From contig JAZDEW010000064.1 in assembly GCA_043808425.1 (NCBI GenBank), positions 11,772 through 75,771 on the forward strand: a stretch of 64,000 nt of DNA, in the 5' to 3' direction. The DNA is from Candidatus Omnitrophota bacterium (GTDB lineage: Bacteria > Omnitrophota > Gorgyraeia > Gygaellales > Profunditerraquicolaceae). A model generated the notes under the pieces. That model did no database searches, had not been told where the DNA came from, and saw only the letters and a program-made list of their open reading frames with translations. The position numbers were made by a program, and so were the translations under genes. Position 1 is the first letter of the stretch. The number at the start of each line of letters is the position of its first letter. Below are positions 3,874 to 48,309 of the stretch, piece after piece.

Positions 3874-4016
3874 TTTTTCTCCCAAAATTACATGATTAGA
3901 AATTTTAACAGAGATTAAGCCCTTTGTCAAATAGAATCAACACCTTATAGCTTTTCTCCTACACAGCCGTGAGAACCCAATATCATATCTTAAAAATCTC
4001 AGCCTAAACATCTTAA

Positions 4017-5450: not shown

Positions 5451-6307
5451 TTTGTCTTTTGCGTTACCTGATCATTTTCTTTAATCAAATCTTTTAACTC
5501 CGCAGCAAAACCAGCGGCAGACATAGCTTCATGGACCTTCTCTACTTTTAAATCTCCAATAGTCTTACCCAAACGAGATACTAAAAATTCATCACCTATG
5601 CTTACATGATCTTTGCTGCCCAAATTAATCACCGCGAAATTAAATTCTTTATTTACAATTATCACCTTACCTTCTTGGCCCTTGGCCAAAGAAGGCTGAT
5701 CTTTTTTAGCAACCTTGGCGACTTTCGTCACCGGCGCATTAATTTTCTCATCAGCCAATTTAGCTTGAGCTGGAGCAGCATCAATAGCCGACTCAGACGC
5801 TTCCGGGCTGACGATCACCTTGCCCAACTCTACGCCTCCTGCACCCGTTTCTAAATCTTTAATTTTTGTCTCCAGATCAATCTTCTGCTGTTGCATGATT
5901 TTTATTTGCTCATTAATTTTCTTGCTATCTTCCTGAACCTGATTAAGCCTTTTTTCAAGATCCTTGCGCAATAATTGCTGCTCAGAAAGTTCCGCCGTAA
6001 TCTGCCCTAACTTATTAAATGTTTCCTCATGCGCTGATTTTTCCGTAAGCAACTCACCCGCTAAAGAATCCGCCTTACTTTCGGCTTCTTGTAATTTTAG
6101 CTGAAGTTCCGTAGCCACCTTTTTAGACTCTTCGAGCTGACTAACCGTTTGGCGTTGACGATTTTCCAGCTCCATAATCTGCGCTTGAAGCTGGACATTT
6201 TGCGCATGCTCTTTTTGATATAAATAAAATACCCCCACAGCAGCTGCTAATGAAATAACAAATAATACAATTAAGACCAATAACCGGATCGAGCCATTAC
6301 GATTCAT
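5447..6307 (-). CDS. Hypothetical membrane-anchored coiled-coil protein
   Basis: N-terminal transmembrane helix (LLVLIVLFVISLAAAVGVFYLY), then a Q/E/K-rich coiled coil, then a small C-terminal beta domain (VIIVNKEFNFAVINLGSKDHVSIGDEFLV). Its stop overlaps the aroA start by 4 nt. Confidence 0.4.
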   Translation of the reverse strand: MNRNGSIRLLVLIVLFVISLAAAVGVFYLYQKEHAQNVQLQAQIMELENRQRQTVSQLEESKKVATELQLKLQEAESKADSLAGELLTEKSAHEETFNKLGQITAELSEQQLLRKDLEKRLNQVQEDSKKINEQIKIMQQQKIDLETKIKDLETGAGGVELGKVIVSPEASESAIDAAPAQAKLADEKINAPVTKVAKVAKKDQPSLAKGQEGKVIIVNKEFNFAVINLGSKDHVSIGDEFLVSRLGKTIGDLKVEKVHEAMSAAGFAAELKDLIKENDQVTQKTK

Positions 6308-9307: not shown

Positions 9308-12085
9308 TTACTTCCCCCCTATTGCCTTGAGGCAATGATCACAAATCAAAGGATGCGCCTGATTCTTTCCCACCTCTAATGAATAATTCCAGCAGCGCAG
9401 ACATTTGATGCCCTGCGCCTTCTCTACCTCAACCGAAAGATCAACAGAATTACTTTTATCCAAAGTGACCTTAACCTGTGAAACTTTAAAAATCTCACCC
9501 AGCTCCATACTACAGCTTTGTAAGAATGTATAACGATCTTGAGTTTTTGTCAATATATTTATTTGCGCGTCAAAAGAGCTGCCAATTACCCCGTTCGTAC
9601 GCATCTGTTCTAAAGCCTTGGCAGAGATGGTAATTAAATCTATCAGTGGCTGGAGCAATCCCCCGACAGCCCGCTCCGGTTCAGTTAACGCATAAAGCTC
9701 GGGCCAGCGCAAAAAGTGCACACTGGAAAAACCAGCATCCTTATCCTCTTTAGGCATATTCTGCCAAATCTCCTCCGCGGTAAAAACTAATATCGGAGAG
9801 ATAATCCTTACTAAGCATCTAAGCACTTCATATAATACCGTCTGCGCCGCTCTTCGCGGAAGCGAAGAGGCTAAAAAAGTATACAACCGGCCTTTAACCA
9901 TATCCAAATAATACATGGAAAGATCTTCATTACAAAAATCATAAATTGCTTTATAGGCTTTGTGAAACTCAAAATCATTATAAGCTTTATCCACTACAAG
10001 GCACAATGAATTTAGGCAGCCAAGTATCCAAATATCAATTTTTCTAAAATCCTGATGATCCGTCTTATGGGTATTCGGATCAAAATCGTATAAATTACTG
10101 AGAATAAAACGAACGGAATTTCTAATTTTACGATAGGCCTCAGAAAGTCGCGTTAGAATTACCGGTGAAATCCGTATATCTTCATTATAATCGCTAGAAG
10201 CCACCCACATTCTTAAAATATCAGCGCCATAAACCTTAATAATTTCAAAAGGGGAAATCACGTTACCGCTTGATTTAGACATTTTACGGCCCGCTCCATC
10301 AACTACAAAACCGTGCGTGAGTACATTTTTAAAAGGCGCCTTACCCTCAATACACACCGAGGAGATAAGCGAAGATTGAAACCATCCACGATGCTGATCT
10401 GAGCCTTCCAGATAAAGGCTAGCCGGAAACTCTAACTCTTCCCTAGCTTTTAACACTGCCTGGCTACTGACTCCGGAATCAAACCAGACATCTAAAATAT
10501 CTGAGCCCTTAGAAAAATTCTTTCCCTTACAATGCGGACAACTTAGATCCGGGCCAAAGAAAGCTTCTATCGGCTGCTGAAACCAGCAATCTGTTCCACT
10601 CTTAGCCGTTAAGACGGCAAAATTCCTAATTACCTGAGTAGATAAAAATTCTTCCTGACAATCATTGCAGATTAAAGCCGGAATAGGTACGCCCCAGTAG
10701 CGCTGGCGCGAAAGGCACCAATCCGGGCGCAAAGAAACCATCGCGGCAATTCTTTCCTGGCCTGCAGGCGGAATCCATTTAACCTCTTGGCGAATTATCG
10801 AAAGCAATTTATTTTTTAAAGCATTATGTTCCATGTTCAAAAACCACTGCTTGGTTGCCCTAAAAATTACCGGGGCCTTGCAACGCCAGCAATGCGGATA
10901 TGCATGCACAATATTAGAATTAAAAAGCAGGTCCCCGGTTTTTTCTAATTGTTCAAGAATGGGCTGCTGGGCGTCATAAACATGCAGCCCCTGGAATTGG
11001 CCGGCCGTAGAATCAAAAACTCCCCGGGAATTTACAGGCATGATTATATTTAATTTATATTTAATTCCAGTAAAATAATCTTCATTGCCATGGCCCGGAG
11101 CAGTGTGCACTAAACCCGTACCTTCCAGGCCGGAAACATAATTAGCTAACACGACCTGTCCCTCCCTGGATGCAAAAGGATGCGTATAGAGCACCCCCTC
11201 CAAATCCTTTCCTTTGAGCTCTTTAATCAGCGTGTATTTAGTCAGGCCACTATTGGTTATAAAACTGGACAACAAATCTTTGGCCACAATCAAATTTCCT
11301 TTATCCGTATTAATATAGAGGTAAACAAAATCCGGATGTACAGCCACCGCGACGTTAGCCAACAGCGTCCAAGGAGTAGTCGTCCAAATAACTAAAAAAC
11401 TTTCCGGGCCAAAATCTTCCGTCGGCTTAATTCTAAATCTTACATAGATGGATAGCGAGCTGCGCTCTTGGTGCTCTACCTCTGCTTCTGCCAAGGCTGT
11501 CTCGCACTTAAAACACCAATTCACCGGCTTTAACCCATGATATAAATAGCCTTGCTCATTAAGCTTAGCCAAAGCATTAAGAATGCTTTCTTCGTAATCA
11601 TGGCTTAAAGTAAGATAGGGATTCTCCCAATCCGCAAAGATACCCAACCGCTTAAACTGCTCCTTCTGCGTTGTAACATATTTATGAGCATAAACAAACG
11701 CCTTCTGACGAAAATCCAGCTGCGAAATTTTAGACTTATGGGTTTTCAATTCCTTAAAAAGCTGGTGCTCAATAGGCAGGCCATGGCAATCCCATCCAGG
11801 AACATAGGCAGAAGAATAGCCACGCAGGGTTTTATATTTGATAATAATATCTTTTAAAATTTTATTCAAAGCATGGCCAATATGAATATCGCCATTAGCG
11901 TAAGGCGGGCCGTCATGCAAAATATACTTCTGTTTACCGGAAGAATTAATATTTATATGTTTATAAATATCCAAGGTTGTCCAGTTCTGCAAAAAAAGCG
12001 GCTCGCGAACAGGCAGATCAGCCTTCATCGGAAAATCTGTTTTTGGTAAATTCAAGGTATGTTTATATCCAGAATTATTTGACAT
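9308..12085 (-). CDS. ileS: Isoleucyl-tRNA synthetase
   Basis: HIGH motif (PPYANGDIHIGHAL), KMSKS motif and a C-terminal zinc-binding Cys cluster. 925 aa. Confidence 0.92.
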   Translation of the reverse strand: MSNNSGYKHTLNLPKTDFPMKADLPVREPLFLQNWTTLDIYKHININSSGKQKYILHDGPPYANGDIHIGHALNKILKDIIIKYKTLRGYSSAYVPGWDCHGLPIEHQLFKELKTHKSKISQLDFRQKAFVYAHKYVTTQKEQFKRLGIFADWENPYLTLSHDYEESILNALAKLNEQGYLYHGLKPVNWCFKCETALAEAEVEHQERSSLSIYVRFRIKPTEDFGPESFLVIWTTTPWTLLANVAVAVHPDFVYLYINTDKGNLIVAKDLLSSFITNSGLTKYTLIKELKGKDLEGVLYTHPFASREGQVVLANYVSGLEGTGLVHTAPGHGNEDYFTGIKYKLNIIMPVNSRGVFDSTAGQFQGLHVYDAQQPILEQLEKTGDLLFNSNIVHAYPHCWRCKAPVIFRATKQWFLNMEHNALKNKLLSIIRQEVKWIPPAGQERIAAMVSLRPDWCLSRQRYWGVPIPALICNDCQEEFLSTQVIRNFAVLTAKSGTDCWFQQPIEAFFGPDLSCPHCKGKNFSKGSDILDVWFDSGVSSQAVLKAREELEFPASLYLEGSDQHRGWFQSSLISSVCIEGKAPFKNVLTHGFVVDGAGRKMSKSSGNVISPFEIIKVYGADILRMWVASSDYNEDIRISPVILTRLSEAYRKIRNSVRFILSNLYDFDPNTHKTDHQDFRKIDIWILGCLNSLCLVVDKAYNDFEFHKAYKAIYDFCNEDLSMYYLDMVKGRLYTFLASSLPRRAAQTVLYEVLRCLVRIISPILVFTAEEIWQNMPKEDKDAGFSSVHFLRWPELYALTEPERAVGGLLQPLIDLITISAKALEQMRTNGVIGSSFDAQINILTKTQDRYTFLQSCSMELGEIFKVSQVKVTLDKSNSVDLSVEVEKAQGIKCLRCWNYSLEVGKNQAHPLICDHCLKAIGGK

Positions 12086-12935
12086 ACTTACCTATGATTA
12101 TATTCAGCTTTTGCTTAACTTTTAAGGGAATTAATTTACGATCCGTAACAATGGCAAATTTTAAAGCCTGTCCACAACTGCATTCGCGCTTAGAACTTAA
12201 ATCTTTAATTACTTTACAGATAATTTTCTTAGCTTGCTCAATATTTTTCTGCAGATTACTTATCACCATTTCTAAGGTTACGCTGGCATGGGCCGGATGC
12301 CAGCAATCATAATCGGTAATACAGGCAAGCGTGGAATAGCAAATCTCAGCTTCCCGGCAAAGCTTGGCCTCCGCCAGATTGGTCATGCCAATAACATCCA
12401 TGCCCCAGCTACGATAAAGCTTGCTCTCCGCTAACGTAGAAAACTGCGGGCCTTCCATATTAATATAAGTTCCGGTTTTATGCATACTCAAGTTCAAAGC
12501 TTTACCAGCGGTGTATATACCGGCGCTAAGCTGCGGACATACCGGATGGCTAAAAACAATATGGCTAACAATTCCCCGGTCAAAAAAACTCATATCCCGG
12601 CCGTAATTTGTGCGATCCACGAATTGATCCACCACCACAAAATCCAGCGGCTTTAATTCCTCCCTTAAGCTCCCGCAGGCAGTGACCGAAATAATTCTTT
12701 CTACCCCTAATTTTTTCATGGCAAAAATATTAGCGCGATAATTTATTCCACTAGGTGAGATACGATGGCCTACCCCATGGCGCGGTAAAAAAACTACCTC
12801 TTTGCCCGCTAATTTTCCTATGGTAAATTTATCTGAGGGCTCTCCAAAAGGAGTCTTGACCTTTAGTTGTTTAGTAATTTTCAAGCCTTCGATTTTATAT
12901 AAACCGCTTCCGCCGATAATGCCGATACCTGACAT
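12075..12935 (-). CDS. mtnP: S-methyl-5'-thioadenosine phosphorylase / purine nucleoside phosphorylase
   Basis: GIIGGSGLY N-terminal motif of the PNP/MTAP family. The start is called at the ATG at 12935, which has an AAGGAG ribosome-binding site, not at the longer ORF start. Confidence 0.75.
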   Translation of the reverse strand: MSGIGIIGGSGLYKIEGLKITKQLKVKTPFGEPSDKFTIGKLAGKEVVFLPRHGVGHRISPSGINYRANIFAMKKLGVERIISVTACGSLREELKPLDFVVVDQFVDRTNYGRDMSFFDRGIVSHIVFSHPVCPQLSAGIYTAGKALNLSMHKTGTYINMEGPQFSTLAESKLYRSWGMDVIGMTNLAEAKLCREAEICYSTLACITDYDCWHPAHASVTLEMVISNLQKNIEQAKKIICKVIKDLSSKRECSCGQALKFAIVTDRKLIPLKVKQKLNIIIGKYVK

Positions 12936-12937
12936 AT

Positions 12938-13774
12938 CTACTCCTTTTTTAATAACTCCTGAGCGCACTGCTTAGCCGCTAGCGCCGCCTCAGGCCAGGA
13001 ACCTCCGTTAATTATAACCTTAAGCGCCGCCTCCGTTGTCCCTCCGGAAGAAGTAATCATCTTGCGCAACTGAGCGGGTGAATTACCCGTTTGTTTGACT
13101 AGATGAATAGTAGAAACAGTTGTACTCGCAGCTAGCTCTAACGCGATTTTTACCTCAATTCCAACCTTAAGCGCCGCCTCATTTAAACGATTAATCCACT
13201 CTTTTTTAGATTTTATAGAAATTTTCAGAGGATCTAACTTTTTAATTTCCATATCATAAAGAATATACGCCGGCCCGCTACCGGAAATAGCCGTAACAGA
13301 ATCAATCTTATCTTCTTTTAACTCCCAAACCTTTCCCAAGATTTTAAATAATTTTTTCGCCAACAACAAATCTTTTTCTTTAGCATGCTTACCTTTGCAT
13401 ATGCTTGTTTCGCCTTCGGCTATTTTTACCGCGATATTCGGCATAGCCCTTACGACCTTAACTTTTCCTAAAACCTTCTGTATGTAGCCCGTAGTAATAC
13501 CCGCGGCAATACTAATAATCAATTTATCCTGAATAAAATTTTTAATTTCCTTAAGCAACAAATCAAAATCCTGCGGCTTAACGGCTAAAATAACAACTTC
13601 AGATTGCCCGACTAATTCCCTGAGATTATGAACCACGGTTATATTTTCTAAATCAATTGTTTTTATTTTATCAAAAACGTAAACCGCGTATTTAAACCTA
13701 ATGCGTTCGCCAATTGCAGAACCCATATTGCCGAATCCGATAATTCCAATCTTTTTCCTTGGAAAATTAAACAT
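12938..13774 (-). CDS. proC: Pyrroline-5-carboxylate reductase
   Basis: KIGIIGFGNMGSAI NADP-binding motif and a ProC dimerisation region (SGSGPAY). Confidence 0.8.
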   Translation of the reverse strand: MFNFPRKKIGIIGFGNMGSAIGERIRFKYAVYVFDKIKTIDLENITVVHNLRELVGQSEVVILAVKPQDFDLLLKEIKNFIQDKLIISIAAGITTGYIQKVLGKVKVVRAMPNIAVKIAEGETSICKGKHAKEKDLLLAKKLFKILGKVWELKEDKIDSVTAISGSGPAYILYDMEIKKLDPLKISIKSKKEWINRLNEAALKVGIEVKIALELAASTTVSTIHLVKQTGNSPAQLRKMITSSGGTTEAALKVIINGGSWPEAALAAKQCAQELLKKE

Positions 13775-13794
13775 TATTTTATCCCGTTTGCCCC

Positions 13795-14532
13795 TTAAAT
13801 AAATGAAGCATGATCAGGCCTGTTTTGAAATAACGGGCGGGAAAATATTGCCCTGCCCAACCTGATAATATCCGCGCCCTCTTCAATCGCGACCTCAAAA
13901 TCATCAGACATTCCCATCGAAAGCAACCAACCAGGATTTAACTGATCACGCAACTGCCTAAGTCTAGAAAAATACGGCCGGGCTTCACTAGCATTATCCA
14001 CCAACGGAGCAATGGTCATTAGCCCTTTAATTCTTACATTAGAGAATTTTATAATTTCTCTACAAACCTGTGCCAACGCTTCCGGCTTAAGTCCAAACTT
14101 CCTTACCTCCAAAGATGTCTTGACCTCTAGAAGAATGTCCTGAATTTTATTTATTTTAAAAGCCTGTTGATTAATTTGGCACGCCAAGCTAACACTATCA
14201 ACAGAATGAATTAAATCGAATATTTTTAAAGCGTCTTTTACTTTATTTGACTGCAAGTGCCCGACCATATGCCATTTTATAGTCGATGGTCGATGGCCGA
14301 TGGTCGAGGAGAGCTGAGGGCTGATGGCTGATGGCTGACTATATTTCAAAAAGGCTTCCTGCACCCTATTTTCGCCAATATGGTTAATCCCCAAACTAGC
14401 TACTTCTTGTACCTCTTGAACACTCCTGCCTTTAGTCACACAGACGATCGTAATTTTGCCCGGATCAATTTTAGTCCTGGCGCAAGCTTCAAACACGCGC
14501 TGATGGACTTTTTCAATGTTCTCTTTAATCAT
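13795..14532 (-). CDS. yggS: PLP-binding protein of the YggS/PLPHP family
   Basis: VTKGRS...GENRVQE...HMVGHLQSNKVK motifs. A short insertion in the protein is encoded by heptanucleotide tandem repeats. Confidence 0.8.
   Translation of the reverse strand: MIKENIEKVHQRVFEACARTKIDPGKITIVCVTKGRSVQEVQEVASLGINHIGENRVQEAFLKYSQPSAISPQLSSTIGHRPSTIKWHMVGHLQSNKVKDALKIFDLIHSVDSVSLACQINQQAFKINKIQDILLEVKTSLEVRKFGLKPEALAQVCREIIKFSNVRIKGLMTIAPLVDNASEARPYFSRLRQLRDQLNPGWLLSMGMSDDFEVAIEEGADIIRLGRAIFSRPLFQNRPDHASFI
14283..14339. repeat. Heptanucleotide tandem repeats, (GGTCGAT)x3 then (GGCTGAT)x3, inside the yggS coding sequence
   Basis: Sequence tcgatggtcgatggccgatggtcgagg...ctgagggctgatggctgatggctgac. It encodes ..SQPSAISPQLSSTIGHRPSTI.. 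in frame. Confidence 0.7.
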
Positions 14533-14662
14533 AGCTTAAGCCGATACGTTATACACAATAACCCAAGAGGGTCAATTAAAAGAAGCTTCGCCGGCAGATC
14601 TGACGGCTTTCGCGGCGCCTGGCGGAAGACAAAAACCCAGCCTAATATTATGACAAAAAAAA

Positions 14663-15919
14663 TTAAAAATATTCCTGATAAACTTCTTTAAAACGATTAA
14701 TTGTTTTAATTAACAGATTTTTGGCAGGCTTAACTAAAGCTAAATTTCCCACAGTTTTATTTTCAAGATCCTCACAAATCATCCCCAGGCAGGTTAAATA
14801 AGTCAGATACTTCTGTCCGGATAAATCACTATTCTCTTTGGCTAAAGAAGCTATCTGGGGATGATTAATCCGTCCGATAACTACCGGCACCCCGATCACG
14901 CTCTCCATCATCTCAATAAATCCCTCAGTCAATAAAGTCTTGCCCACCATAATGAAATGACTGATTTCATGAAGCGCAACTTTTGGCTCCACCGCTTCCT
15001 TAATCTGCGTACAAATTAAACGGCTAGCATTAGTAACCATAACCGCTACATCACGTTGTTTTATTGGTTTATAAAATTCATTTTTCCTAACTAAAATTTC
15101 TTTATCCTCCTGGATATGGCTAATATCCCCGATGATCCCGTGAGTACGCTTAATATCTTCGGCCAACTCAAAATTAATTTTTAAGCCTCCCGAGAGTTGC
15201 TGCGTCATACTATTACCACCTAGAGGCAGAATTTGAATACTCTGCAAAAGGCCATCTTTAAAAATCAGCAGTTCCGTTACATCGCTGCCACAATCGCAAA
15301 ATACGCTTACACCACGTTTTTCTTCTATGCCAAATACCGCCCTGCTCGTGGCCAGTCCCGAAAAAGAAAGGCTCCCAATCTCATATCCAGCCTGGCTAAT
15401 CACCCGGCTTAAACTCTGCAAAGGTGCCAATCTAGCGCAGACTAAATATAAATCTACTTCTAATCTATGGCTATATAAGCCGATAGGATTAATCACATTA
15501 TTCTTAGAATCAATAGAATAGCTCGAAGGAATTACATGAATTATTTCATCCTCTAAACTAGAGCCAAGGATACGCGCCTGTTCATTAGCCGTAGCGATAT
15601 CCGTGGAAGTAATCACCTTATTACCACGCTCGGCAAGAGGGATAATCGCATGGCTGTGTTTAGTTGAAATATCCTTACCTGAAAAATTAATATGGATCGA
15701 CTTAATTTTTAATCCAGATTTAATTTTTAAGCTCTTAAGAATTTTAGTCAAGCAGATAACCAGCTCAGTGGCATCCACAATCACCCCTTCTTTAACCCCG
15801 CAAGATAAAAAACAATCAAAGAAGATACTGCTTATTTTATTTTTTCTTACCAAAGCCAGTGCCGCGGATATTTTATTCGAACCTATGTCTACGGCGCAAA
15901 TATAACTATTATTTAGCAT
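14663..15919 (-). CDS. ftsA: Cell division protein FtsA
   Basis: Actin/Hsp70 fold with N-terminal AVDIGSNKI and IDIGGG-like motifs. It sits directly downstream of ftsQ. Confidence 0.85.
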   Translation of the reverse strand: MLNNSYICAVDIGSNKISAALALVRKNKISSIFFDCFLSCGVKEGVIVDATELVICLTKILKSLKIKSGLKIKSIHINFSGKDISTKHSHAIIPLAERGNKVITSTDIATANEQARILGSSLEDEIIHVIPSSYSIDSKNNVINPIGLYSHRLEVDLYLVCARLAPLQSLSRVISQAGYEIGSLSFSGLATSRAVFGIEEKRGVSVFCDCGSDVTELLIFKDGLLQSIQILPLGGNSMTQQLSGGLKINFELAEDIKRTHGIIGDISHIQEDKEILVRKNEFYKPIKQRDVAVMVTNASRLICTQIKEAVEPKVALHEISHFIMVGKTLLTEGFIEMMESVIGVPVVIGRINHPQIASLAKENSDLSGQKYLTYLTCLGMICEDLENKTVGNLALVKPAKNLLIKTINRFKEVYQEYF

Positions 15920-16697
15920 TGTTCAATTTGATTAACGGTTCCTTAAACCTAAGGTCAATATACTTAATATTGGCCCATTCCTCGCGCTCCTGAATCACCA
16001 GGCCCCCTAGAATCATCATCTTTTGCCTAATATTATATGCTCCGGTGCGCACTTCAAAACCTAACCACTCTGCGCCAGGAACAGCTAAAGTATAATTGGC
16101 AATTTGCCTGGGCAAGAACATAAAAAATCCAGCGCTTCCTAGATCAGCCACATCAATCTTTTTTAGGGTAAACCCACCAAAAGCTTTATTTGCCTTAAAC
16201 TCATTAATAATACTTAAAGCTAAATCTAACTCTAAGCGCTTATAACTCATTCCCGGCTTAGGCGCAAATATCTTGGTTTCTAAGCCATAAATTATCGGTA
16301 ATTCTAGATTCTCAGTCGTAGTGTCCGGATGAAATAACACTCCCTGCTCATCGATGGCAAAATTCTTATAGAACTTTACCAGAGCCAACGGCCTGCGTTT
16401 TAAAAAATCTACCACTATGGAGCTAGGCAAAATCCGAGCAAACCTAACCTTACGACAATCCGGACATCTTAACGTCGCCCTCGCGGCCTCATTATTTAAA
16501 TTTAAAGTGAATATATTTCTACCTTTTAAATATTCAAATTGATCATCAGAATTCCTAACGATGACCTGTTTAACGGCAAAAAAATCCGCAGTAATTAATA
16601 CTTTCCAAATATATCCTATAATAAAAGAGATGGCAAGTAAAATTATCAACAAGATACTAATAATTTTTGCGGGTAAATTAAATTTTTTTTTCCTCAC
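15909..16697 (-). CDS. ftsQ: Cell division protein FtsQ (POTRA domain)
   Basis: N-terminal transmembrane anchor and POTRA-type fold. It lies between ddl and ftsA. Confidence 0.7.
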   Translation of the reverse strand: MRKKKFNLPAKIISILLIILLAISFIIGYIWKVLITADFFAVKQVIVRNSDDQFEYLKGRNIFTLNLNNEAARATLRCPDCRKVRFARILPSSIVVDFLKRRPLALVKFYKNFAIDEQGVLFHPDTTTENLELPIIYGLETKIFAPKPGMSYKRLELDLALSIINEFKANKAFGGFTLKKIDVADLGSAGFFMFLPRQIANYTLAVPGAEWLGFEVRTGAYNIRQKMMILGGLVIQEREEWANIKYIDLRFKEPLIKLNNAK

Positions 16698-17695
16698 CCG
16701 GCCCCTCCTTCCTTGATCTCGTTAACCAGCCCCTTGAAAGGGGCCGACGCATATGCTAATTCCAACAATTTAAGACAAAGCCGGCTAAAATCAATACCCG
16801 CAATTTTAGCCGCTTTGGGCAAAAGGCTAGTGGCGGTCATCCCGGGTATAGTATTAACCTCTAAAATACACACCGAGCCATCCTTAGCTAAAATAATATC
16901 CACCCGCGAACAGCCATAGCAACCCAAAAATTTATGTGCCCGCAAAGCTGCCTTTTGGACCTCTAAAGTCACCCTTGGGCCTAAAACAGCAGGAACAATA
17001 TACTGCGTTGAGCCCGTTTGATATTTAGCCGTAAAATCAAAAAATTTATGCTTAGGGATAATTTCAATTACCGGTAAAGCTTGCTCATCCAAAATGCCAA
17101 CGGTGAGCTCCCTTCCCGATACATACTCCTGTAAAATTATATGCTCATCAAATTGAAAAGCCAGATCAATGGCCGCCGGTAATTCTTGCCCGCGCTCTAC
17201 GAGCGATAACCCGATACTCGATCCTTGATTGGCCGGTTTAACCACCAGAGGAAAACCAAGCTGATTTTTAAAAGCTGGGCCTTTTCCAAAAGCATAGCTC
17301 TTCTGATAAATTGACTTCTTGATAAACTGAGATTTCGGTACACATAATCCGGCTTGCGAAAATATTTCTAATGAACCAATCTTATCCATCGCCAGCTGGC
17401 TGGCCCTAACCCCGGAGGCAGTAAAGGGGAGATTTAATCTATCTAAAATCCCCTGAATCACGCCATCTTCACCATAACGGCCATGCAAAGCGATAAACGC
17501 GCAATCTAAATTATACTTTTTAAGTAAGCTGGAATTCTCCTGCAAATTATCCATAGCGATATCAATCGCTACTACCTCCAGGCCGGCCTCCTTAAGCGCA
17601 GAAAAAACAGCCTGTCCGCTTTTTAAAGAAATCTCCCTTTCCGAAGAAGGCCCGCCCATTAAAACGCCGACTCTACCAAAATCTTTTATTTCCAT
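16694..17695 (-). CDS. ddl: D-alanine--D-alanine ligase
   Basis: ATP-grasp fold and Ddl motifs (VLMGGPSSEREISL; EVNTIPG). Confidence 0.85.
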   Translation of the reverse strand: MEIKDFGRVGVLMGGPSSEREISLKSGQAVFSALKEAGLEVVAIDIAMDNLQENSSLLKKYNLDCAFIALHGRYGEDGVIQGILDRLNLPFTASGVRASQLAMDKIGSLEIFSQAGLCVPKSQFIKKSIYQKSYAFGKGPAFKNQLGFPLVVKPANQGSSIGLSLVERGQELPAAIDLAFQFDEHIILQEYVSGRELTVGILDEQALPVIEIIPKHKFFDFTAKYQTGSTQYIVPAVLGPRVTLEVQKAALRAHKFLGCYGCSRVDIILAKDGSVCILEVNTIPGMTATSLLPKAAKIAGIDFSRLCLKLLELAYASAPFKGLVNEIKEGGAG

Positions 17696-18567
17696 ATTTT
17701 TATCTCAGGCTCTAAGTTAATTTTAAATTTTTCCCATACTTTTTTTTGCATCAAATCCATGAGCGATAAAACATCCTTGCTCTTGGCCTTCGCGGTATTC
17801 AAAATAAAATTCGCGTGCCGCTTAGAGATCACTGCCCCCCCCTTGGCCTTACCCTTTAATCCGCAGGCATCAACCAATCTACCGGCAGAGCCCAAAGAAG
17901 GATTCTTAAAAATACACCCGGCACTGAGCAAGTTATGGCCATAAGATTGCTTACGCCGCGAGAGATATTCGTTTATCTTTGTTAAAATTACTTTCTTTGG
18001 CGCAGCATGCAGCTTAAGCTTAGCCCAGATAATAATATATTTATTTAAATTGGATTTTCGATAAGCAAACTTCAGCTGCTGGCTGGTCAGCAGTTTTAGC
18101 TTTCCACTATAATCTAGGACACCTACCTGCTTTACCAATTCTCCTATAGAGCTACCCCAGGCGCCGGCATTGCCCATCAATGAACCACCCAATGTCCCGG
18201 GGATACCCACCAGAAACTCCGAACCACTTAAATTGTTCTTCTTTGAAAATGAAATAAATTCATTTAATTTTAAACCGCTCCAGGCCACTACACAACTACC
18301 CTGACAAGAACATTTTCTAAAATCCCGGCTGCTTAATCTAATCACCAGCCCATCTAAACCTTTATCACTAACCAGGATATTGCTGCCCGCTCCCAGGATA
18401 AAAACATCCAGGCCATTATGCCTAGCAATCACTAACGCCTCTTGTAGTGCTTTAAGATTCTGCGGTTCAAAAAAATATTTTGCCCGGCCCCCAATCCTAA
18501 AACTCGTAAAACTTGCCAAATTAATTTTGGTTTTTATTGCCTTATTTAAGTGCCCGGACCAATGCAT
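17686..18567 (-). CDS. murB: UDP-N-acetylenolpyruvoylglucosamine reductase
   Basis: FAD-binding domain (GGRAKYF...ILGAGSN). Confidence 0.8.
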   Translation of the reverse strand: MHWSGHLNKAIKTKINLASFTSFRIGGRAKYFFEPQNLKALQEALVIARHNGLDVFILGAGSNILVSDKGLDGLVIRLSSRDFRKCSCQGSCVVAWSGLKLNEFISFSKKNNLSGSEFLVGIPGTLGGSLMGNAGAWGSSIGELVKQVGVLDYSGKLKLLTSQQLKFAYRKSNLNKYIIIWAKLKLHAAPKKVILTKINEYLSRRKQSYGHNLLSAGCIFKNPSLGSAGRLVDACGLKGKAKGGAVISKRHANFILNTAKAKSKDVLSLMDLMQKKVWEKFKINLEPEIKIWK

Positions 18568-19921
18568 CGCTAACCCTCACAATATCCCCTGCTCCTAAGG
18601 TCATCACCAGATCGCCTTCTCTAATTATGCCCAAAATATGGGCAAGGATACCTTCTTTAGGCAGATAGAAGGCTTCTTTATCCGGAGCATGTTCTTTTAT
18701 TTTTTTTAATAACTCCAAAGCGCTTACTCCTTCTATCGGCTGCTCACTAGCCGCATAAATATCGGTAATAATCAAATAATCCGCCAGCGCAAAAGATTGA
18801 ATAAAATCATTTAAAAGCAATTGCGTACGGGTATAACGATGCGGCTGGAACACGATGATTTTTCGCTTAATCTTCAAATTAGCTACTGCCGCCAAAGAAG
18901 CTTTAATTTCCGAAGGATGATGCGCATAATCATCAATAACCAGATATTTATCACTTTGAAATTTAATCTCTAATCTGCGGCCAGCGCCTTTATATCCCTC
19001 TAGGCTACTGCGTATATGCTTTAAATCAATACCTAGCTCTAATCCCAGGCCAATTACCGCCAAGGCATTGGAAATATTATGCCTTCCCCCTAGAGACAAA
19101 TGAAAACGCAAAATAAATTTATCTTTAAAATAACAATCAAAATCTGAAACCAGCCCATGTAATTCGATGTTTTTAGCGCAAATATCAGCCGAATGGTCTA
19201 GGCCAAAAAATACGCGCTTGCCCTCATAGTCGCGCATCAGCTTTAAAAGACAAGGGTCGTCAAAACAAGCAAAAACACAACCTCCCGCCAAGGTCTGTTT
19301 AATAAAAAGCCCAAAGGCGGCTAATACATTGCTAAAATTATGATAATAATCCAAATGCTCATGGTCAATATTCGTAATAATAGAATACTTGGGTGTATAG
19401 CTTAAGAAGGACCCGTCAGATTCGTCAGCTTCAGCAACAAAAAACTGGCCGCTTCCTAAACAAGCATTGGTCTGGATATTATTCAGAATGCCCCCAATAG
19501 CTACCGTAGGACAAACCCCTGCTTCCATAAGCATATAAGAAATTAAAGAAGTAGTCGTGGTCTTACCATGGCTACCAGCAACGGTTATAACTGTTTTTTG
19601 CCGCATCAGCTCGGCGAGAGCCTGTGCCCTCTTAATCAAAGGTATACCTAAAACCCTGCTCTGATACACCTCAGGGTTATCCGCGGTAATAACCGAAGAA
19701 TAGACCACTACATCCTGCTGGGATATATTTTGTGCGCGATGTCCCAGAAAAATCTCTGCCCCCAGGCCAGCCAACTGCCGCGTAATAAGATTTTCTTTTA
19801 AATCCGAGCCGCTTACCCTGAATCCGCTCTCCAACATCAAACGCGCAATCCCGCTCATCCCGATCCCGCCTATACCGATAAAATGATAATATTTTCTCAT
19901 AATAAAAGCTGTTCCTTCCAT
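18542..19921 (-). CDS. murC: UDP-N-acetylmuramate--L-alanine ligase
   Basis: IGIGGIGMSG and GSHGKTTT P-loop motifs of the Mur ligase family. The true start may be the MRKYYHF methionine a few codons in. Confidence 0.88.
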   Translation of the reverse strand: MEGTAFIMRKYYHFIGIGGIGMSGIARLMLESGFRVSGSDLKENLITRQLAGLGAEIFLGHRAQNISQQDVVVYSSVITADNPEVYQSRVLGIPLIKRAQALAELMRQKTVITVAGSHGKTTTTSLISYMLMEAGVCPTVAIGGILNNIQTNACLGSGQFFVAEADESDGSFLSYTPKYSIITNIDHEHLDYYHNFSNVLAAFGLFIKQTLAGGCVFACFDDPCLLKLMRDYEGKRVFFGLDHSADICAKNIELHGLVSDFDCYFKDKFILRFHLSLGGRHNISNALAVIGLGLELGIDLKHIRSSLEGYKGAGRRLEIKFQSDKYLVIDDYAHHPSEIKASLAAVANLKIKRKIIVFQPHRYTRTQLLLNDFIQSFALADYLIITDIYAASEQPIEGVSALELLKKIKEHAPDKEAFYLPKEGILAHILGIIREGDLVMTLGAGDIVRVSDALVRALK

Positions 19922-20673
19922 GAACTTTCAAGTTCCTGCAAACTAGCAAAAGCATAGGCCATCCTAAGCGCCCTAACTAAATCTTTATAATCTCGCAGCC
20001 AATGACAAAAAAGCACAAATTTATCCCTACCAAACTCTTTAATCAGATAATTCAATAAGCTATAGGATTCGGCATAAAACAGCTCTATTAACTGCTTATC
20101 TTTTACGCGCATTAAATCAAACCTATTTAATTGGTCTAAACTCATAAAGTTATTTGTCCTAACTTTTGCGGCCAAATACCTCTGCACTGACTGATTTTCA
20201 GATTGTCTTTCCTGAAAAGTAGCCACCCCTTCTTCCAGCCAAAGCGGAACAGCCGGATTATTAAAACCAACCACCTCTCTAAAAATAATATGCGCCAACT
20301 CATGCGCCAGAACATGATCTAAAAACCCTGGAGCAGCCGCATAGCATTGGATAGATTTATTACTCACCGTTACTAAGCCAGCGGACCAATCTGGGCCGCT
20401 ATTTTCTTTCATGTATTCTTCTTGGGTATCAAAAAGATAAATTTTTGCGCGGTTATCCCAGGTCCAGAAGTTAAAACGGTTAAATCCAAAATCATCCGTA
20501 ATTTTTTCATAATATCCTTCCGCCTTTTTAATCAACCGGTCTAGCAAGGCCTCCGAAGCACCCCGATAAAAAACCTGAAAATGCGTGCTTTTGGATACGC
20601 GCCAATCCTGATTTTGCGCAAAAACCAATACCGGCGTAAAAATAAATAAAATTAATAATCTTAATTTAAACAT
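19897..20673 (-). CDS. Secreted HExxH metallopeptidase-like protein (peptidase-MA / DUF1570-like)
   Basis: Signal peptide (MFKLRLLILFIFTPVLVFAQ), HELAH zinc motif and a downstream WLEEGVATFQE glutamate. It is inserted between murG and murC. Confidence 0.5.
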   Translation of the reverse strand: MFKLRLLILFIFTPVLVFAQNQDWRVSKSTHFQVFYRGASEALLDRLIKKAEGYYEKITDDFGFNRFNFWTWDNRAKIYLFDTQEEYMKENSGPDWSAGLVTVSNKSIQCYAAAPGFLDHVLAHELAHIIFREVVGFNNPAVPLWLEEGVATFQERQSENQSVQRYLAAKVRTNNFMSLDQLNRFDLMRVKDKQLIELFYAESYSLLNYLIKEFGRDKFVLFCHWLRDYKDLVRALRMAYAFASLQELESSWKEQLLL

Positions 20674-21788
20674 TACTTTAGCTTTAACACCTCGCTTGAC
20701 AGCCTTTCTGTTGCATTTAAAGCCGGCAGCCCTTGATACGCTTTTTGCATTTCTTTAAGTTTTTCATGATTACAAAAGTATGCCTGTAAACTTTCTTTTA
20801 ATTTATCCGCACTTAATTCCGCATCGAGCATTATTTCGGCCGCGCCAACATCTGCTAAAACCTGCGCATTAGCTAACTGATGCGCATAAGCAAAAGGATA
20901 CGGAATCAATAACGCCGGTAAATTAAATTTTTGTATTTCCGCAATCGTGGTAGCTCCGGCCCGGCAAATTACCAGGTCGGCTGCGCTATAGGCATATTCC
21001 ATCTGATGAAAAAAATCATAAAGCTTATAGGCCAAAGGCAACACTGCGTACTCAGCTGCCAGCCAAGTAAAATCCTGCGTTCCGCAGATATGAATCACCT
21101 GCAAATCATCCTTTTTTTGATAAGCAGACAACACCTCCAGGCATGCCGCATTTATTCTATGCGCCCCCTGGCTGCCACCCATAATTAAAATAGTGAATTT
21201 TCCTTCTTTAAACTTAAAAAAAAACCCGGCCTTTTTTTTATCCATCCGCGACAAGCCCCTGCGTAGAGGGTTACCCGTTAAAATAATTTTATGAGGAGCG
21301 ATATTGAGATAATTACGAGTCTGGCTAAATGATACCGCGACTTTATCTACCAGCTTGACCAATAATTTATTGGCCCTACCGCAAATAACATTTTGCTCAT
21401 GAATCATCGTTTTTATCCTGAATAACCAGGCCCAAAATATTAAGGCAACAGTATTTAAGCTGCCGAATCCCACAACCAGATCCGGTTTAAATTTTACAAT
21501 TATCCGCAATGACGCCCAGGCGCCAGCTAAAAAAAAGTAAAAGCCAAATATATTTTTACGATTTAAATTAAAGCTCAAATTAGCCGCGGGAATATACTTT
21601 ACTTGTCCCGGAGCGACAGGAATCTCATCCTGATGGATTTTTTGCGGTAACACCAAGAGCGCTTCTTGCCCGGAATTATTTAATGAGTCCAAAAGAGCGA
21701 TCGCCGGAAAAATATGGCCGCCGCTGGAGCCGGTAACAATCAAAACACGCATAGCTAAAGTCTCCGATCTTAAGGATACTCTCCGCAA
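20673..21788 (-). CDS. murG: Undecaprenyldiphospho-muramoylpentapeptide beta-N-acetylglucosaminyltransferase
   Basis: GGSGGHIFPA motif and GT28 fold. A later ATG (MRVLIVTG) is an alternative start. Confidence 0.85.
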   Translation of the reverse strand: MRRVSLRSETLAMRVLIVTGSSGGHIFPAIALLDSLNNSGQEALLVLPQKIHQDEIPVAPGQVKYIPAANLSFNLNRKNIFGFYFFLAGAWASLRIIVKFKPDLVVGFGSLNTVALIFWAWLFRIKTMIHEQNVICGRANKLLVKLVDKVAVSFSQTRNYLNIAPHKIILTGNPLRRGLSRMDKKKAGFFFKFKEGKFTILIMGGSQGAHRINAACLEVLSAYQKKDDLQVIHICGTQDFTWLAAEYAVLPLAYKLYDFFHQMEYAYSAADLVICRAGATTIAEIQKFNLPALLIPYPFAYAHQLANAQVLADVGAAEIMLDAELSADKLKESLQAYFCNHEKLKEMQKAYQGLPALNATERLSSEVLKLK

Positions 21789-22864
21789 CGAGCGATATTA
21801 ATCAAAATACCCAGGCTAACCATATCAAAGATTAACGATGAGCCCCCGTAGCTAATAAACGGCAGCGGTAAGCCCTTAGTGGGAAAAACTCCGCAAGAAA
21901 CACCAATATTAATAATCGCCTTAATCGAAATCATTAAAATTAACCCCAGAGCAAGAAAATATCCGAACCTGTCTTGTGCATTCTTAATAATTTTAAGCCC
22001 TTGATAAATAAAAATCATAAACAACGCTATTATCCCTAAGGTGCCCAACAAACCCAGCTCTTCGCCAATGATGGAAAAAATAAAATCAGTATGCGCCGCC
22101 GGAAGATAAAAAAGTTTCTGCTGAGAATGGCCCAGCCCCCTGCCAAATATCCCCCCTGAACCAATAGCAATCTGCGATTGAATAATCTGAAAACCTGACC
22201 CTTTAGGATCAAGCCAGGGATTTATAAAAGCTAAAATTCTCGCTCGGCGATAAGGCACGCTAAAAATTAAAAAATAAAATACCGGCAAGCTACAAAGCAA
22301 CATGTTCAAAATATACTTGCCTCTAACCCCGCCCACAAAAAGCATAGTTAAAACTACGCTGCCTAAAGCGATAATCGTACCTAAATCCGGCTGCAAAAGT
22401 ATCAGCAAAGCCACTGCCCCCAACATACATACCGCGGGCATAAAACCGGCCACTAACGTTTTAATCTTATCTTCTTTACGAGAGATAAAATCAGCAATAT
22501 AAATAATAAGCGCCAAATTGGCAAACTCCGAAGGCTGAAAACTAATAAATTTAAATCTAAACCAGCGCCGAGCTCCGGAAACTTCTCTACCTACTCCGGG
22601 TATCAGCACTAAAATCAGTAAGCCTAGAGCAATCCAAATCAGCCAGTGAACATATTTCCTAAAAAAACGATAGTCAATAACCATGGCCGCGAAAGCCAAC
22701 AGCGATCCGACAAACAAAAAAGATAAATGCCGCTTTAAAAAATAAAAACTATCTTTATACCTCTCCCAGGCATAGATACTTGAAGAGCTATAGATCATTA
22801 CGATACCGATACAAACGAGTACAACCGATACCGTAAGCAAGTTAATTCGCGTTTTCCTAACCAT
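21770..22864 (-). CDS. ftsW: Peptidoglycan glycosyltransferase FtsW (SEDS family)
   Basis: Polytopic SEDS-family membrane protein sitting between murD and murG. Confidence 0.8.
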   Translation of the reverse strand: MVRKTRINLLTVSVVLVCIGIVMIYSSSSIYAWERYKDSFYFLKRHLSFLFVGSLLAFAAMVIDYRFFRKYVHWLIWIALGLLILVLIPGVGREVSGARRWFRFKFISFQPSEFANLALIIYIADFISRKEDKIKTLVAGFMPAVCMLGAVALLILLQPDLGTIIALGSVVLTMLFVGGVRGKYILNMLLCSLPVFYFLIFSVPYRRARILAFINPWLDPKGSGFQIIQSQIAIGSGGIFGRGLGHSQQKLFYLPAAHTDFIFSIIGEELGLLGTLGIIALFMIFIYQGLKIIKNAQDRFGYFLALGLILMISIKAIINIGVSCGVFPTKGLPLPFISYGGSSLIFDMVSLGILINIARCGEYP

Positions 22865-24137
22865 GAAGCTTAACCGCTTGAGCTAAATCCAAAACAATTC
22901 TTTTAAAGGCCATGCCCCGGGCTTCAAAATCCGTAAACATATCATAACTTGAACACATGGGAGACAGCAATACGCAATACCCTGGCTGAGACTGGTCATA
23001 GGCTTTAGTTACCGCCTCTTTAAGGGTATCCACCTTAGCGATCGGAAAACCTCCCCTGTTAAGGTCAGAAGCAATTATATCCCTGGCTTCTCCAATTAAA
23101 AACACCTGCTGGACCTTGCCTCTGGAGGCATCAAGAATTACCCGATAATCAATTCCCTTATGCCTGCCTCCGGCGATAAGCATAATCGGTGAAGCGATAT
23201 TATTTATCGCCCAAATAGCGGAATCCGCGGTAGTGGCTTTAGAATCATTAATAAATTTTACCCCGTTTATTTCTGCTACCTCCTCTAAGCGGTGCTGAAT
23301 CCCTTTAAATTCCTGAAAAACTTTTTGCATCTGTGGCAATTTTACTCCCAAAATTCCGCCCACCTCCAACACCGCGCTCTGGTTAGAGTTTAATCCTTTT
23401 TCCTGAGCAAAAAAAGAAACCTTTGATTTAGCGTCAAAGCCAACAGCTCTCAAAACAGAATCATCGGCATTTAAAACCAAAAAATCCCCTTGATCCTGAT
23501 TCATGAAAATACGTTTTTTCGCAGCTGCATATTCCTGCATATTGTCATAGCGATCCAAATGATTCGGAGTTAAATTCAAAATAACCGCAATCTTAGGTTT
23601 AAAATCTTTAACCGTCTCCAACTGGAATGAACTTACTTCCAGAACCACAAAATCATTCTCTTTTATCTTCTCCACTTCAGCGCAAAATGAATTCCCGATA
23701 TTACCGCAAACAAAAACATTCTTTTTCAATGTGGACAAAACTTTACCGATTAAGGTAGCCACCGTAGTCTTTCCGTTTGAGCCAGTAACAGCGATAATTG
23801 GTGCCGAACACAAAATACTCGCCACCTCAATTTCACTAATCAATAACTTATTGAATTCTTTGGCCCAATTAACGCACAAAGAATCTGGCGGCACACCGGG
23901 AGAAATTACCACTAAATCCGCCTGCTTAACCCAATCTTGACTATGCCTGCCTAATTCCACCCTAATTTCACTGTCACAAAGTTTAGCCCGAGCTTGACGA
24001 CTTTGCGCGTCATCCTTAATATCGGTAACGCTAACAATGGCTTTTAAGCGATGTAAAAGATTAGCGCAAGCCAGGCCGGAACGCGCTAAACCAACAATAG
24101 TAACTTTTTTATTTTTAAAATATTCGCTATTACGCAT
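22857..24137 (-). CDS. murD: UDP-N-acetylmuramoylalanine--D-glutamate ligase
   Basis: Mur ligase P-loop GSNGKTT. It sits in the mraY-murD-ftsW order. Confidence 0.85.
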   Translation of the reverse strand: MRNSEYFKNKKVTIVGLARSGLACANLLHRLKAIVSVTDIKDDAQSRQARAKLCDSEIRVELGRHSQDWVKQADLVVISPGVPPDSLCVNWAKEFNKLLISEIEVASILCSAPIIAVTGSNGKTTVATLIGKVLSTLKKNVFVCGNIGNSFCAEVEKIKENDFVVLEVSSFQLETVKDFKPKIAVILNLTPNHLDRYDNMQEYAAAKKRIFMNQDQGDFLVLNADDSVLRAVGFDAKSKVSFFAQEKGLNSNQSAVLEVGGILGVKLPQMQKVFQEFKGIQHRLEEVAEINGVKFINDSKATTADSAIWAINNIASPIMLIAGGRHKGIDYRVILDASRGKVQQVFLIGEARDIIASDLNRGGFPIAKVDTLKEAVTKAYDQSQPGYCVLLSPMCSSYDMFTDFEARGMAFKRIVLDLAQAVKLHG

Positions 24138-24144
24138 AAACTTT

Positions 24145-27985: not shown

Positions 27986-27991
27986 TGTGCG

Positions 27992-28079
27992 CCTTCCTGC
28001 CTGCCGGCAAGGCAGGCTTTCTTACTTGATTTATCAAGCCATATGCTTTTAATAATTGAATACTTAGAAGGTACTAGGT
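27992..28079. repeat. Bipartite intergenic repeat element, copy A, in the ftsI-murE spacer
   Basis: Imperfect palindrome CCTGCCTGCCGGCAaGGCAGG, then an AT-rich stretch, then the 26-nt stop-proximal box gaatacttagaaggtactaggttca that overlaps the ftsI stop. About 80% identical to copy B over roughly 80 nt. Confidence 0.7.
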
Positions 28080-29777: not shown

Positions 29778-29801
29778 TATGTTCCTTAGGAATGATAAAT
29801 C

Positions 29802-30170: not shown

Positions 30171-30176
30171 ATAACT

Positions 30177-41597: not shown

Positions 41598-41669
41598 TAC
41601 CTACCCCTCTCTTTTAACAAGGCCGTTTCTATTTTACCTTTGGTCAAAAACTATGCTAACTTTCTTCAT

Positions 41670-44126: not shown

Positions 44127-44232
44127 AAATCTACACTCACTTCCCCGCGCTGCTCCCTCTTCGTTCTTTATTAGCCATACTTTACACCTTGATCCCTATC
44201 CGATAAGTCCTCAAGCTTACCGCGAAACTTCT

Positions 44233-44357: not shown

Positions 44358-44444
44358 CCATCAAAAACCCTATTGTCACAAAAATATTCTATAAATTCGG
44401 AATAACTATTCGGACTCAAAAAGCGAAAGAAGTATTCCCTATTA

Positions 44445-48301: not shown

Positions 48302-48309
48302 AATTATAT

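Follow-up and report, generated by a model that had tools for sequence, protein, structure and literature searches.

In the Omnitrophota lineage, an ancient and clean deletion has very probably removed ftsZ from the 3′ end of the division and cell wall (dcw) cluster. The cluster now closes with ftsA, which abuts yggS-proC, and according to published surveys the phylum has no FtsZ homologue. The absence itself is already known, as it was reported by Seymour et al. 2023 (in a supplementary note) and by Pende et al. 2021 (in a figure legend and a table). The present analysis of a single window (the whole 64-kb stretch of DNA studied here) and its relatives is consequently not a discovery, but adds confirmation and locus detail, i.e. 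the clean deletion, the conserved junction, the constraint on FtsA and an apparently remodelled FtsZ-binding patch. What is new is the detail on FtsA, which is divergent, experiences stronger purifying selection than the neighbouring genes, keeps subdomain 1C and a predicted C-terminal helix, and is without residues of the R300/E303 type. Almost all bacteria have FtsZ, and lineages that do without it are natural experiments on the contribution of the Z-ring. The Omnitrophota, with FtsA and an intact dcw cluster, could show whether FtsA filaments alone organise a divisome.

The dcw cluster and its 3′ end

The window is part of a metagenome-assembled genome from a Candidatus Omnitrophota lineage, a member of the PVC superphylum. 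On its minus strand, Pfam assignments give the order mraZ-rsmH-ftsL(like)-ftsI-murE-murF-mraY-murD-ftsW-murG-peptidase-murC-murB-ddl-ftsQ-ftsA, in an intact cluster. This is the canonical collinear order, the sole addition being a Peptidase_MA_2 gene between murG and murC. The terminal gene, ftsA (14663–15919; Pfam SHS2_FTSA and FtsA; TIGR01174), shares 11 nt at its start with the end of ftsQ (15909–16697), which was assigned from FtsQ_DivIB_C at E = 2e-4, barely past the cut-off, and holds a position kept in all related loci. The remaining genes, from ddl to mraZ, occupy 16694–31517 (Pfam); murE and murF, both with Mur-ligase domains, were told apart by position. The ftsL-like ORF (29802–30170; 122 aa, one N-terminal TM segment) gave no match in a profile (HMM) search and is placed by slot and topology. 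Instead of an ftsZ directly downstream of ftsA, as in a canonical cluster, the usual site of that gene holds a spacer of exactly 130 bp (14533–14662). It is followed by yggS (13795–14532; PLP-binding YggS/YlmE family; Pfam Ala_racemase_N; TIGR00044 at 148.8 bits, cut-off 106.25) and proC (12938–13774; pyrroline-5-carboxylate reductase; Pfam P5CR_dimer and F420_oxidored), both on the minus strand. An earlier note on this DNA had described a textbook dcw order with yggS and proC downstream of ftsA at a distance of 130 bp, and the gene calls, together with a direct reading of the spacer, agree with it throughout. Also encoded on the minus strand, and assigned via Pfam, are a partial PBP2-like gene (1 to ~1468; 32% identity to the FtsI of the window), mreD (1468–1956), mreC (1953–2726), mreB (2800–3930), rodZ (60751–61539; HTH_25 and RodZ_C) and ftsK (61536–63731; FtsK_4TM, FtsK_alpha, FtsK_SpoIIIE and FtsK_gamma). 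FtsN was not found among the gene products of the window.

None of the sizeable ORFs of the window matched the tubulin/FtsZ Pfam families, and motifs of the GGGTG[TS]G type were absent from every frame. Six-frame tblastn of the window with the FtsZ of E. coli and that of B. subtilis as queries likewise gave a best E of only 0.1. The corresponding match, in ORF 40015–41067, was rejected: its two local alignments are not collinear and thus represent noise, and the product, a coiled coil rich in Glu and Lys, matches no family or PDB entry. The unassigned ORFs of the window encode coiled-coil proteins and are not GTPase-like. In combination, the Pfam, tblastn and motif searches uphold the earlier reading that the window has no tubulin/FtsZ-like ORF and no GGGTGTG motif. 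The 130-bp spacer holds a single weak terminator-like hairpin (14574–14559), and neither a significant RNA fold (z = 0.47) nor an Rfam match was found in it.

The locus was further compared with 110 related loci from independent assemblies, giving a set of 111 with the window's own (FtsA 56–100% identical; 1.07 Mb in total). Across this 1.07 Mb around the dcw cluster there were zero FtsZ matches at E ≤ 1e-3, and ftsA closes the cluster in every locus, in translational coupling with ftsQ. Among the 88 informative loci, in which the sequence continues for 400 bp or more beyond ftsA, yggS follows directly (<1 kb) in 74 and after a 5.7-kb insertion in one. The other 13 have unrelated genes after ftsA (MarC, GlgC-like, TetR, thioredoxin, glycosyltransferase and others), ftsZ in none. 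Loci in which ftsA is followed by a larger gap or by another gene (L002, L011, L013, L015, L022, L026, L059, L071, L072, L081, L089, L099 and L108) yielded no tubulin-like gene by Pfam. Nor was any ftsZ pseudogene or remnant found in 79 ftsA-yggS spacers, that of the window and 78 homologous ones (best E = 1.3). The recurrent junction and the remnant-free spacers together indicate an ancient and clean deletion. An NCBI protein from 'Candidatus Omnitrophota bacterium' matches the window FtsA at 100% identity, and named homologues at 77–92% and at 56–69% identity are all from Omnitrophota/Omnitrophica.

The retained FtsA

The protein retained at the end of the cluster is a true FtsA, albeit a divergent one, and is under purifying selection. 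Its identity to solved FtsAs is ~18–21%, and it sits right on the TIGR01174 cut-off, a borderline score of 175.9 against 175.85 bits. The scores against the curated Pfam cut-offs are 61.4 versus 31.8 for PF14450 and 57.8 versus 25.4 for PF02491, and FtsA entries in the PDB were matched at E values of 1e-27 to 1e-32. An AF2 model built from a 69-sequence alignment reached a pLDDT of 84.9 (a shallow 21-sequence alignment gave 41 and was discarded), and displays the actin-like fold of FtsA, in which subdomain 1C (SHS2) replaces 1B. In Foldseek searches the best matches of this model were FtsA structures, with TM scores of 0.76–0.88 as compared to 0.57–0.72 for PilM. The best 19 matches in the PDB were all FtsA (TM 0.66–0.88), with PilM and MreB ranking behind. 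The dN/dS of ftsA, 0.04–0.09 against 0.06–0.29 elsewhere, is the lowest among eight neighbouring genes, and the 1C domain is the best-conserved part of the protein (entropy 0.27 versus 0.55 bits overall).

An amphipathic membrane-targeting helix after a flexible linker is predicted at the C-terminus. In the AF2 model a low-confidence linker (residues 389–401) leads into a helix (402–417) with a hydrophobic moment of 0.53–0.55, versus 0.57 for the E. coli membrane-targeting sequence, and the C-terminal end is an invariant ...YQEYF. A degenerate ATP site, suggested by DCGSDVT and VGK instead of DIGGGT and TGG, was considered and dropped. The phosphate-2 motif of S. aureus FtsA, which was crystallised with ATP, is DIGEDVT as opposed to DIGGGT in E. 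coli, and DCGSDVT thus says nothing on ATP binding or polymerisation.

Residues R300 and E303 of E. coli FtsA were reportedly assigned a specific role by Pichoff and Lutkenhaus 2007 at the site where the FtsZ tail binds. According to the literature, the tail contacts E. coli FtsA near residues 234–245 and 294–304, in subdomain 2B. Charged residues of the R300/E303 type are absent from this C-terminal-peptide site in the window FtsA, a result that depends on the alignment, as identity is ~20% and HMMER and MAFFT differ slightly in residue placement. In 126 close Omnitrophota FtsAs the aligned positions hold S/A and L, and in 69 broader ones K/S/A/Q and L/S/F; the R300 position is Lys in 29 of 69 distant Omnitrophota FtsAs. 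The 2B region is nevertheless conserved within the Omnitrophota and not decaying, with an invariant Arg/Lys at position 300 of the window FtsA and Cys at 303, which suggests that some partner still binds there. Judging from these alignments, the old FtsZ-tail pocket on 2B appears to have been remodelled.

Probable division without a Z-ring

The cells keep, in addition to a strongly conserved FtsA, the full set of peptidoglycan pathway genes, FtsK, FtsQ, an FtsL-like protein, FtsI, FtsW, MreBCD and RodZ. The earlier note had offered two options, a relocated ftsZ or an FtsZ-less mode of division with FtsA, FtsK, FtsQLI, MreBCD and RodZ retained, and the 111 loci, the spacers and the published surveys support the second. 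We infer an FtsA-scaffolded, FtsZ-independent divisome. FtsA would be held at the membrane by its C-terminal amphipathic helix, and its very conserved 1C domain would act on the cytoplasmic side as a scaffold for recruiting or activating the FtsQL-FtsWI septal synthase with no Z-ring, with MreB/RodZ and FtsK possibly contributing, as in Chlamydia. We suggest tentatively, and at somewhat less than an even chance, that this could constitute a third kind of FtsZ-independent cytokinesis. A remodelled FtsA, rather than MreB or a tubulin, would then be the primary membrane-bound cytoskeletal scaffold in a divisome that is complete in other respects, and the FtsZ-tail pocket and the ...YQEYF end would be repurposed for a new partner. 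Should FtsA indeed be the scaffold, the phylum would represent a naturally occurring 'FtsA-only' system for finding out what cells actually require FtsZ for.

The canonical FtsA-FtsZ proto-ring (E. coli, T. maritima; PDB 4A2A, 7Q6D) is similar with regard to the fold with 1C, the C-terminal amphipathic helix and the place of the gene after ftsQ. However, the window FtsA is without an FtsZ partner and the R300/E303-aligned residues are not conserved. The best structural matches of the model, with TM scores of 0.79–0.88, are the antiparallel double filaments of FtsN-bound FtsA (PDB 7Q6F, 7Q6I). These provide a precedent for the coupling of an FtsA filament to downstream divisome proteins, the likeness of the Omnitrophota FtsA being confined to predicted structure.

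Alternatively, the cells may divide in the manner of the Chlamydiota, with MreB/RodZ and FtsK organising septal peptidoglycan and FtsA accessory or repurposed, e.g. as a PilM-like membrane adaptor, and not the main scaffold. Chlamydiota are likewise PVC bacteria without ftsZ that keep peptidoglycan genes, FtsK, FtsQ/L/I/W, MreB and RodZ, and the window encodes MreB, MreC, MreD, RodZ and FtsK. FtsK is moreover reported in the literature to be recruited early in Chlamydia, normally the role of FtsZ, and many Omnitrophota FtsAs weakly match the PilM_2 Pfam model. Still, we consider this rather unlikely: FtsA structures are matched far better than PilM, the most conserved part of the protein is the FtsA-specific 1C domain, dN/dS is nowhere lower in the neighbourhood than in ftsA, and the translational coupling to ftsQ at the dcw end extends to every locus. 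In addition, Chlamydiae are also without ftsA, whereas the Omnitrophota keep a strongly constrained ftsA that ends an intact, collinear dcw cluster. The FtsZ-less Planctomycetota, a sister lineage within the PVC superphylum, resemble the Omnitrophota in having lost ftsZ and kept many dcw genes (Phycisphaerae, Brocadiia and Planctomycetales retain most of them). Conversely, they have also lost ftsB and mostly ftsA, and their dcw cluster is fragmented, while that of the window is textbook save for ftsZ. The joint loss of ftsA seen in FtsZ-less Chlamydiota and Planctomycetota is thus not found here, where ftsA is intact and under purifying selection. Since ftsA disappeared along with ftsZ in Chlamydiae and in most Planctomycetes, its retention in the Omnitrophota calls for a division-linked function. 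The same comparison bears out the remark in the earlier note that FtsA without FtsZ would be unusual.

A scaffold made of FtsA also has to be weighed against a divergent tubulin-superfamily or unrecognised cytomotive protein, encoded elsewhere, that takes the place of FtsZ, perhaps still in cooperation with FtsA. Such a replacement would be consistent with the conserved Arg/Lys 300 and Cys 303 of the 2B region, and HMM surveys miss very divergent homologues. It is very unlikely all the same, given that no candidate was found in the window, where the unassigned ORFs are coiled-coil, or in the flanks of the 111 loci, and that few bacterial proteins are normally as well conserved as FtsZ.

The published record and the fate of the gene

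Seymour et al. 2023 (Supplementary Note 1) found 421 Omnitrophota genomes to be without ftsZ, bar one archaeal-like contaminant with 89% identity to an archaeal protein, and excluded the ftsZ-bearing OLB16 and Ratteibacteria from the phylum. Likewise, Pende et al. 2021 listed the Omnitrophica as FtsZ-less and FtsA-positive; in their table FtsZ is missing in 4 of 5 'Omnitrophica' genomes, with FtsA in 3/4 of those, and OLB16 alone has FtsZ. The genome-wide absence is accordingly that seen in HMM-based surveys of MAGs and SAGs, i.e. of incomplete genomes. Neither these surveys nor the tblastn used here would pick up a tubulin-superfamily protein that has diverged very far. Two papers of 2025 that deal with PVC division overlooked the documented loss; one of them, an iScience analysis, grouped the Omnitrophota with the dcw-conserving PVC phyla and did not flag the loss of ftsZ.

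The phylum-wide lack of an FtsZ homologue reported in the genome surveys implies that the gene is not merely displaced. The window and the flanks represent only part of each genome, and dispersed dcw genes are, according to the literature, common among PVC bacteria. Nevertheless, a simple rearrangement, with an intact canonical ftsZ elsewhere in the genome and outside the 64-kb window, is extremely improbable. The 421 genomes of Seymour et al. 2023 contained none apart from the archaeal-like sequence, the only exception among the five Omnitrophica-labelled genomes of Pende et al. 2021 has since been removed from the phylum, and no match was obtained in the 1.07 Mb near the dcw cluster of the 111 loci.

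Finally, the probability that a contig join or binning error at ~14.6 kb removed ftsZ is negligible, because the one point in its favour is that the source is a metagenome assembly, while the identical junction is present in another assembly from this organism (L001) and in 74 independent contigs, a recurrence across independent assemblies that is not that of an artefact. Continuity across the ftsA-yggS junction, singled out in the earlier note as a point to check, thus holds. The contigs that share the junction come from many different studies and assemblers, and among them are one of 390 kb (UBA6253) and one of 922 kb (JBAZUE010000001.1).

Gene content and the ftsA–yggS junction

Every sizeable ORF of the window lies on the minus strand, and the gene list of the earlier note, which described a division and cell wall (dcw) cluster, matches the Pfam and NCBIfam scans of the window's ORFs. 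The cluster runs through mraZ (31080–31517), rsmH (30177–31079), a 122-aa ORF with a single transmembrane segment and no HMM match in the ftsL slot (29802–30170), ftsI (28080–29777), two Mur ligases named murE and murF by their position, mraY, murD, ftsW (21770–22864), murG, a Peptidase_MA_2 zinc-metallopeptidase gene (19897–20673) in the murG–murC interval, murC, murB, ddl, ftsQ (15909–16697) and ftsA (14663–15919). A spacer of exactly 130 bp (14533–14662) separates ftsA from yggS (13795–14532; TIGR00044, 148.8 bits versus a cut-off of 106.25). Thereafter follow proC, a PNP/UDP-family phosphorylase gene, ileS, a gene for a DksA-type zinc-finger protein, lspA, lgt, a pseudouridine synthase gene, an ORF with transmembrane and coiled-coil segments, aroA (4017–5450), mreB, mreC, mreD and a partial PBP2 gene, while RodZ and FtsK are encoded at 60.7–63.7 kb. 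An assignment of ORF 4017–5450 as murA was ruled out, as its TIGR01356 (aroA) score exceeds the cut-off.

None of the window's ORFs matched the tubulin/FtsZ Pfam family, the lowest E from six-frame tblastn of the window with E. coli and B. subtilis FtsZ was 0.1, and a GGGTG[TS]G-type motif was not found in any frame, in agreement with the earlier statement that the window holds neither a GGGTGTG motif nor an FtsZ-like ORF. The two query sequences, compared with one another as a control, showed 46.6% identity (E 1e-99). The best match, ORF 40015–41067 (350 aa, without family assignment), was discarded as a Glu/Lys-rich coiled coil with two non-collinear local matches. The window's ftsA–yggS spacer displayed no significant folding (z = 0.47) and no Rfam match, and contains a weak terminator-like hairpin (n = 1).

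In other bacteria yggS commonly comes after ftsZ (ylmE/yggS synteny). With FtsA as query, 30 loci were obtained from GTDB species genomes, contigs of 922 kb and 390 kb among them, and a metagenome scan with an FtsA alignment added 80 (lowest FtsA identity 56%); across these and the window's own locus (111 loci, 1.07 Mb) no FtsZ was detected at E ≤ 1e-3. The absence of ftsZ between ftsA and yggS noted earlier is thus borne out. Downstream neighbours were counted wherever 400 bp or more follow ftsA, at 88 loci. The continuity of the assembly at the junction held up, yggS recurring within 1 kb of ftsA in 74 of the 88 (median apparent gap ~108 bp), in most cases with proC, pnp and ileS next. At one locus (L013) a 1717-aa ORF (11356–16506 of that locus) with Ser/Thr kinase, AAA_16, TPR, GAF, HisKA and HATPase domains has been inserted precisely at the ftsA–yggS junction, and at the other 13 ftsA is followed by unrelated genes, including those for MarC, a GlgC-like transferase, TetR/OEP, thioredoxin, glycosyltransferases, a STAND-like ATPase and DUF362. 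The last dcw gene is ftsA at every locus, and the 79 ftsA–yggS spacers (12.3 kb) contained no FtsZ-like remnant (best E 1.3). The empty slot has the appearance of a clean deletion of long standing, which brought ftsA and yggS together.

The retained FtsA

The window encodes a genuine but divergent FtsA, with the Pfam domains SHS2_FTSA and FtsA. Its TIGR01174 score (175.9 bits) sits at the cut-off (175.85), which explains why NCBI names for these proteins alternate between 'FtsA' and 'FtsA domain-containing protein'. Its sequence matches in the PDB are FtsAs only (E 1e-27 to 1e-32), and an AF2 model from a 69-sequence alignment (pLDDT 84.9) gave FtsA structures as best Foldseek matches (7Q6F, 7Q6G, 7Q6I, 7Q6D and 4A2A; TM 0.76–0.88, 18–21% identity), with lower scores for PilM (TM 0.57–0.72) and MreB (about 0.5–0.66).

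The protein is identical (100%) to one from a 'Candidatus Omnitrophota bacterium' MAG at NCBI, and its locus is also present on GCA_043809945.1 contig JBDROQ010000108.1. Named homologues, both in the close set (77–92% identity) and around a 56%-identical relative, are all Omnitrophota/Omnitrophica. Four GTDB species-representative contigs with an Omnitrophota-type locus (L004, L012, L020 and L030) bear the public title 'uncultured Planctomycetales bacterium', probably a taxonomic mislabel.

FtsA is under strong constraint. Against seven relatives the dN/dS of ftsA is 0.04–0.09, the lowest among eight neighbouring genes, and amino acid identity among relatives is 77–92% for FtsA versus 41–85% for MurB, FtsQ, YggS and ProC. 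Conservation is highest in the 1C domain, where entropy is 0.27 bits (0.55 overall) and 57% of columns are at least 98% conserved. Since ftsA and ftsQ overlap by 11 nt, they are probably co-translated.

In the model, a poorly modelled linker (389–401) precedes a C-terminal helix (402–417) whose hydrophobic moment (0.53–0.55, versus 0.57 for the E. coli membrane-targeting helix) suggests that the membrane anchor is kept. The protein ends (residues ~393–418; window 14663–14740) in the motif E-(V/I/L/A)-Y-Q-E-Y-F, and Y414, E416, Y417 and F418 are invariant across 69/69 diverse Omnitrophota FtsAs. Such conservation goes beyond the needs of a plain amphipathic anchor and may mark a candidate protein-binding motif.

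The FtsZ-tail site of E. coli FtsA lies in subdomain 2B, near residues 234–245 and 294–304, where R300 and E303 are reportedly the classic charged residues. Arg and Glu are retained at the aligned positions in B. subtilis and S. aureus FtsA; the 126 close Omnitrophota sequences carry Ser/Ala and Leu, and the broader set of 69 Lys/Ser/Ala/Gln and Leu/Ser/Phe. The alignments, which differ slightly there, support the inference that this site is altered in Omnitrophota. The 2B region displays no decay, and because residues 300 (Arg/Lys) and 303 (Cys) of the window's FtsA are conserved, the surface appears changed rather than abandoned.

Probable division without FtsZ

Across the lineage the ftsZ slot is empty. 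FtsA, the peptidoglycan pathway, FtsK, FtsQ, FtsI, FtsW, MreBCD and RodZ are present. We tentatively infer that membrane-anchored FtsA could, via its 1C domain, organise a divisome from the cytoplasmic side without FtsZ. The main mechanistic rival, a Chlamydia-like scheme in which MreB, RodZ and FtsK, all retained, would lead with FtsA as accessory, has the strong constraint on FtsA to accommodate and seems less likely. A tubulin-like substitute, unrecognisable by sequence and so compatible with the negative searches, is improbable.

For the genome-wide absence of ftsZ we rely on published surveys. Among 421 Omnitrophota genomes (276 species), ftsZ was missing save for one exception, 89% identical to an archaeal protein, and OLB16 and Ratteibacteria, which encode ftsZ, fall outside the phylum; lineage-wide absence of ftsY and ribosomal protein L30 was also stated (Seymour et al. 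2023, Nat Microbiol, PMC10066038). The table of Pende et al. lists FtsZ as missing in 4/5 'Omnitrophica' genomes, OLB16 being the only one with it, and FtsA as present in three of those four. Together with the 111 loci, these surveys support the suggestion in the earlier note of a lineage lacking FtsZ, and its other option, relocation of ftsZ elsewhere in the genome, for which the empty slot itself would allow, is very unlikely. An assembly artefact is barely credible, given the conserved junction.

The loss is documented, yet not widely noticed: Rivas-Marin et al. 2016 left the question open, a 2025 iScience paper placed Omnitrophota among PVC phyla conserving dcw genes, and neither it nor a second PVC paper of 2025 mentions the loss. 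As FtsZ loss is already known at phylum level, novelty is low; the minor additions are that the junction is conserved, that the spacers carry no remnant of ftsZ, that FtsA is constrained and that its FtsZ-binding patch is altered.

Other features of the window

Of 57 related loci, 44 have the Peptidase_MA_2 gene between murG and murC, and 13 cleanly lack it. The identity of IleRS (window 9308–12085) among relatives is bimodal (~75–90% versus ~60–67%) and does not track that of FtsA (e.g. 90% for FtsA and 65% for IleRS at locus L024), which suggests that IleRS falls into two lineages, or that the gene has been replaced, although its position is conserved. ORF 5447–6307 (286 aa, without family assignment), between rluD and aroA and near mreB, combines an N-terminal transmembrane segment, a long coiled coil and a C-terminal domain.

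A low-GC stretch (41274–51986; 33–35% versus ~40%) adjoining tRNA-Pro(CGG) at 51909–51986 encodes a nucleotidyltransferase, an SNF2-family helicase, Type III restriction Res and Mod, RhuM, a Bro-N protein and RadC, and resembles an integrated island of a defence or mobile type. An FMN riboswitch (57678–57807; Rfam RF00050, 110 bits) precedes ribBA (56294–57544), both belonging to a rib/nusB gene group.
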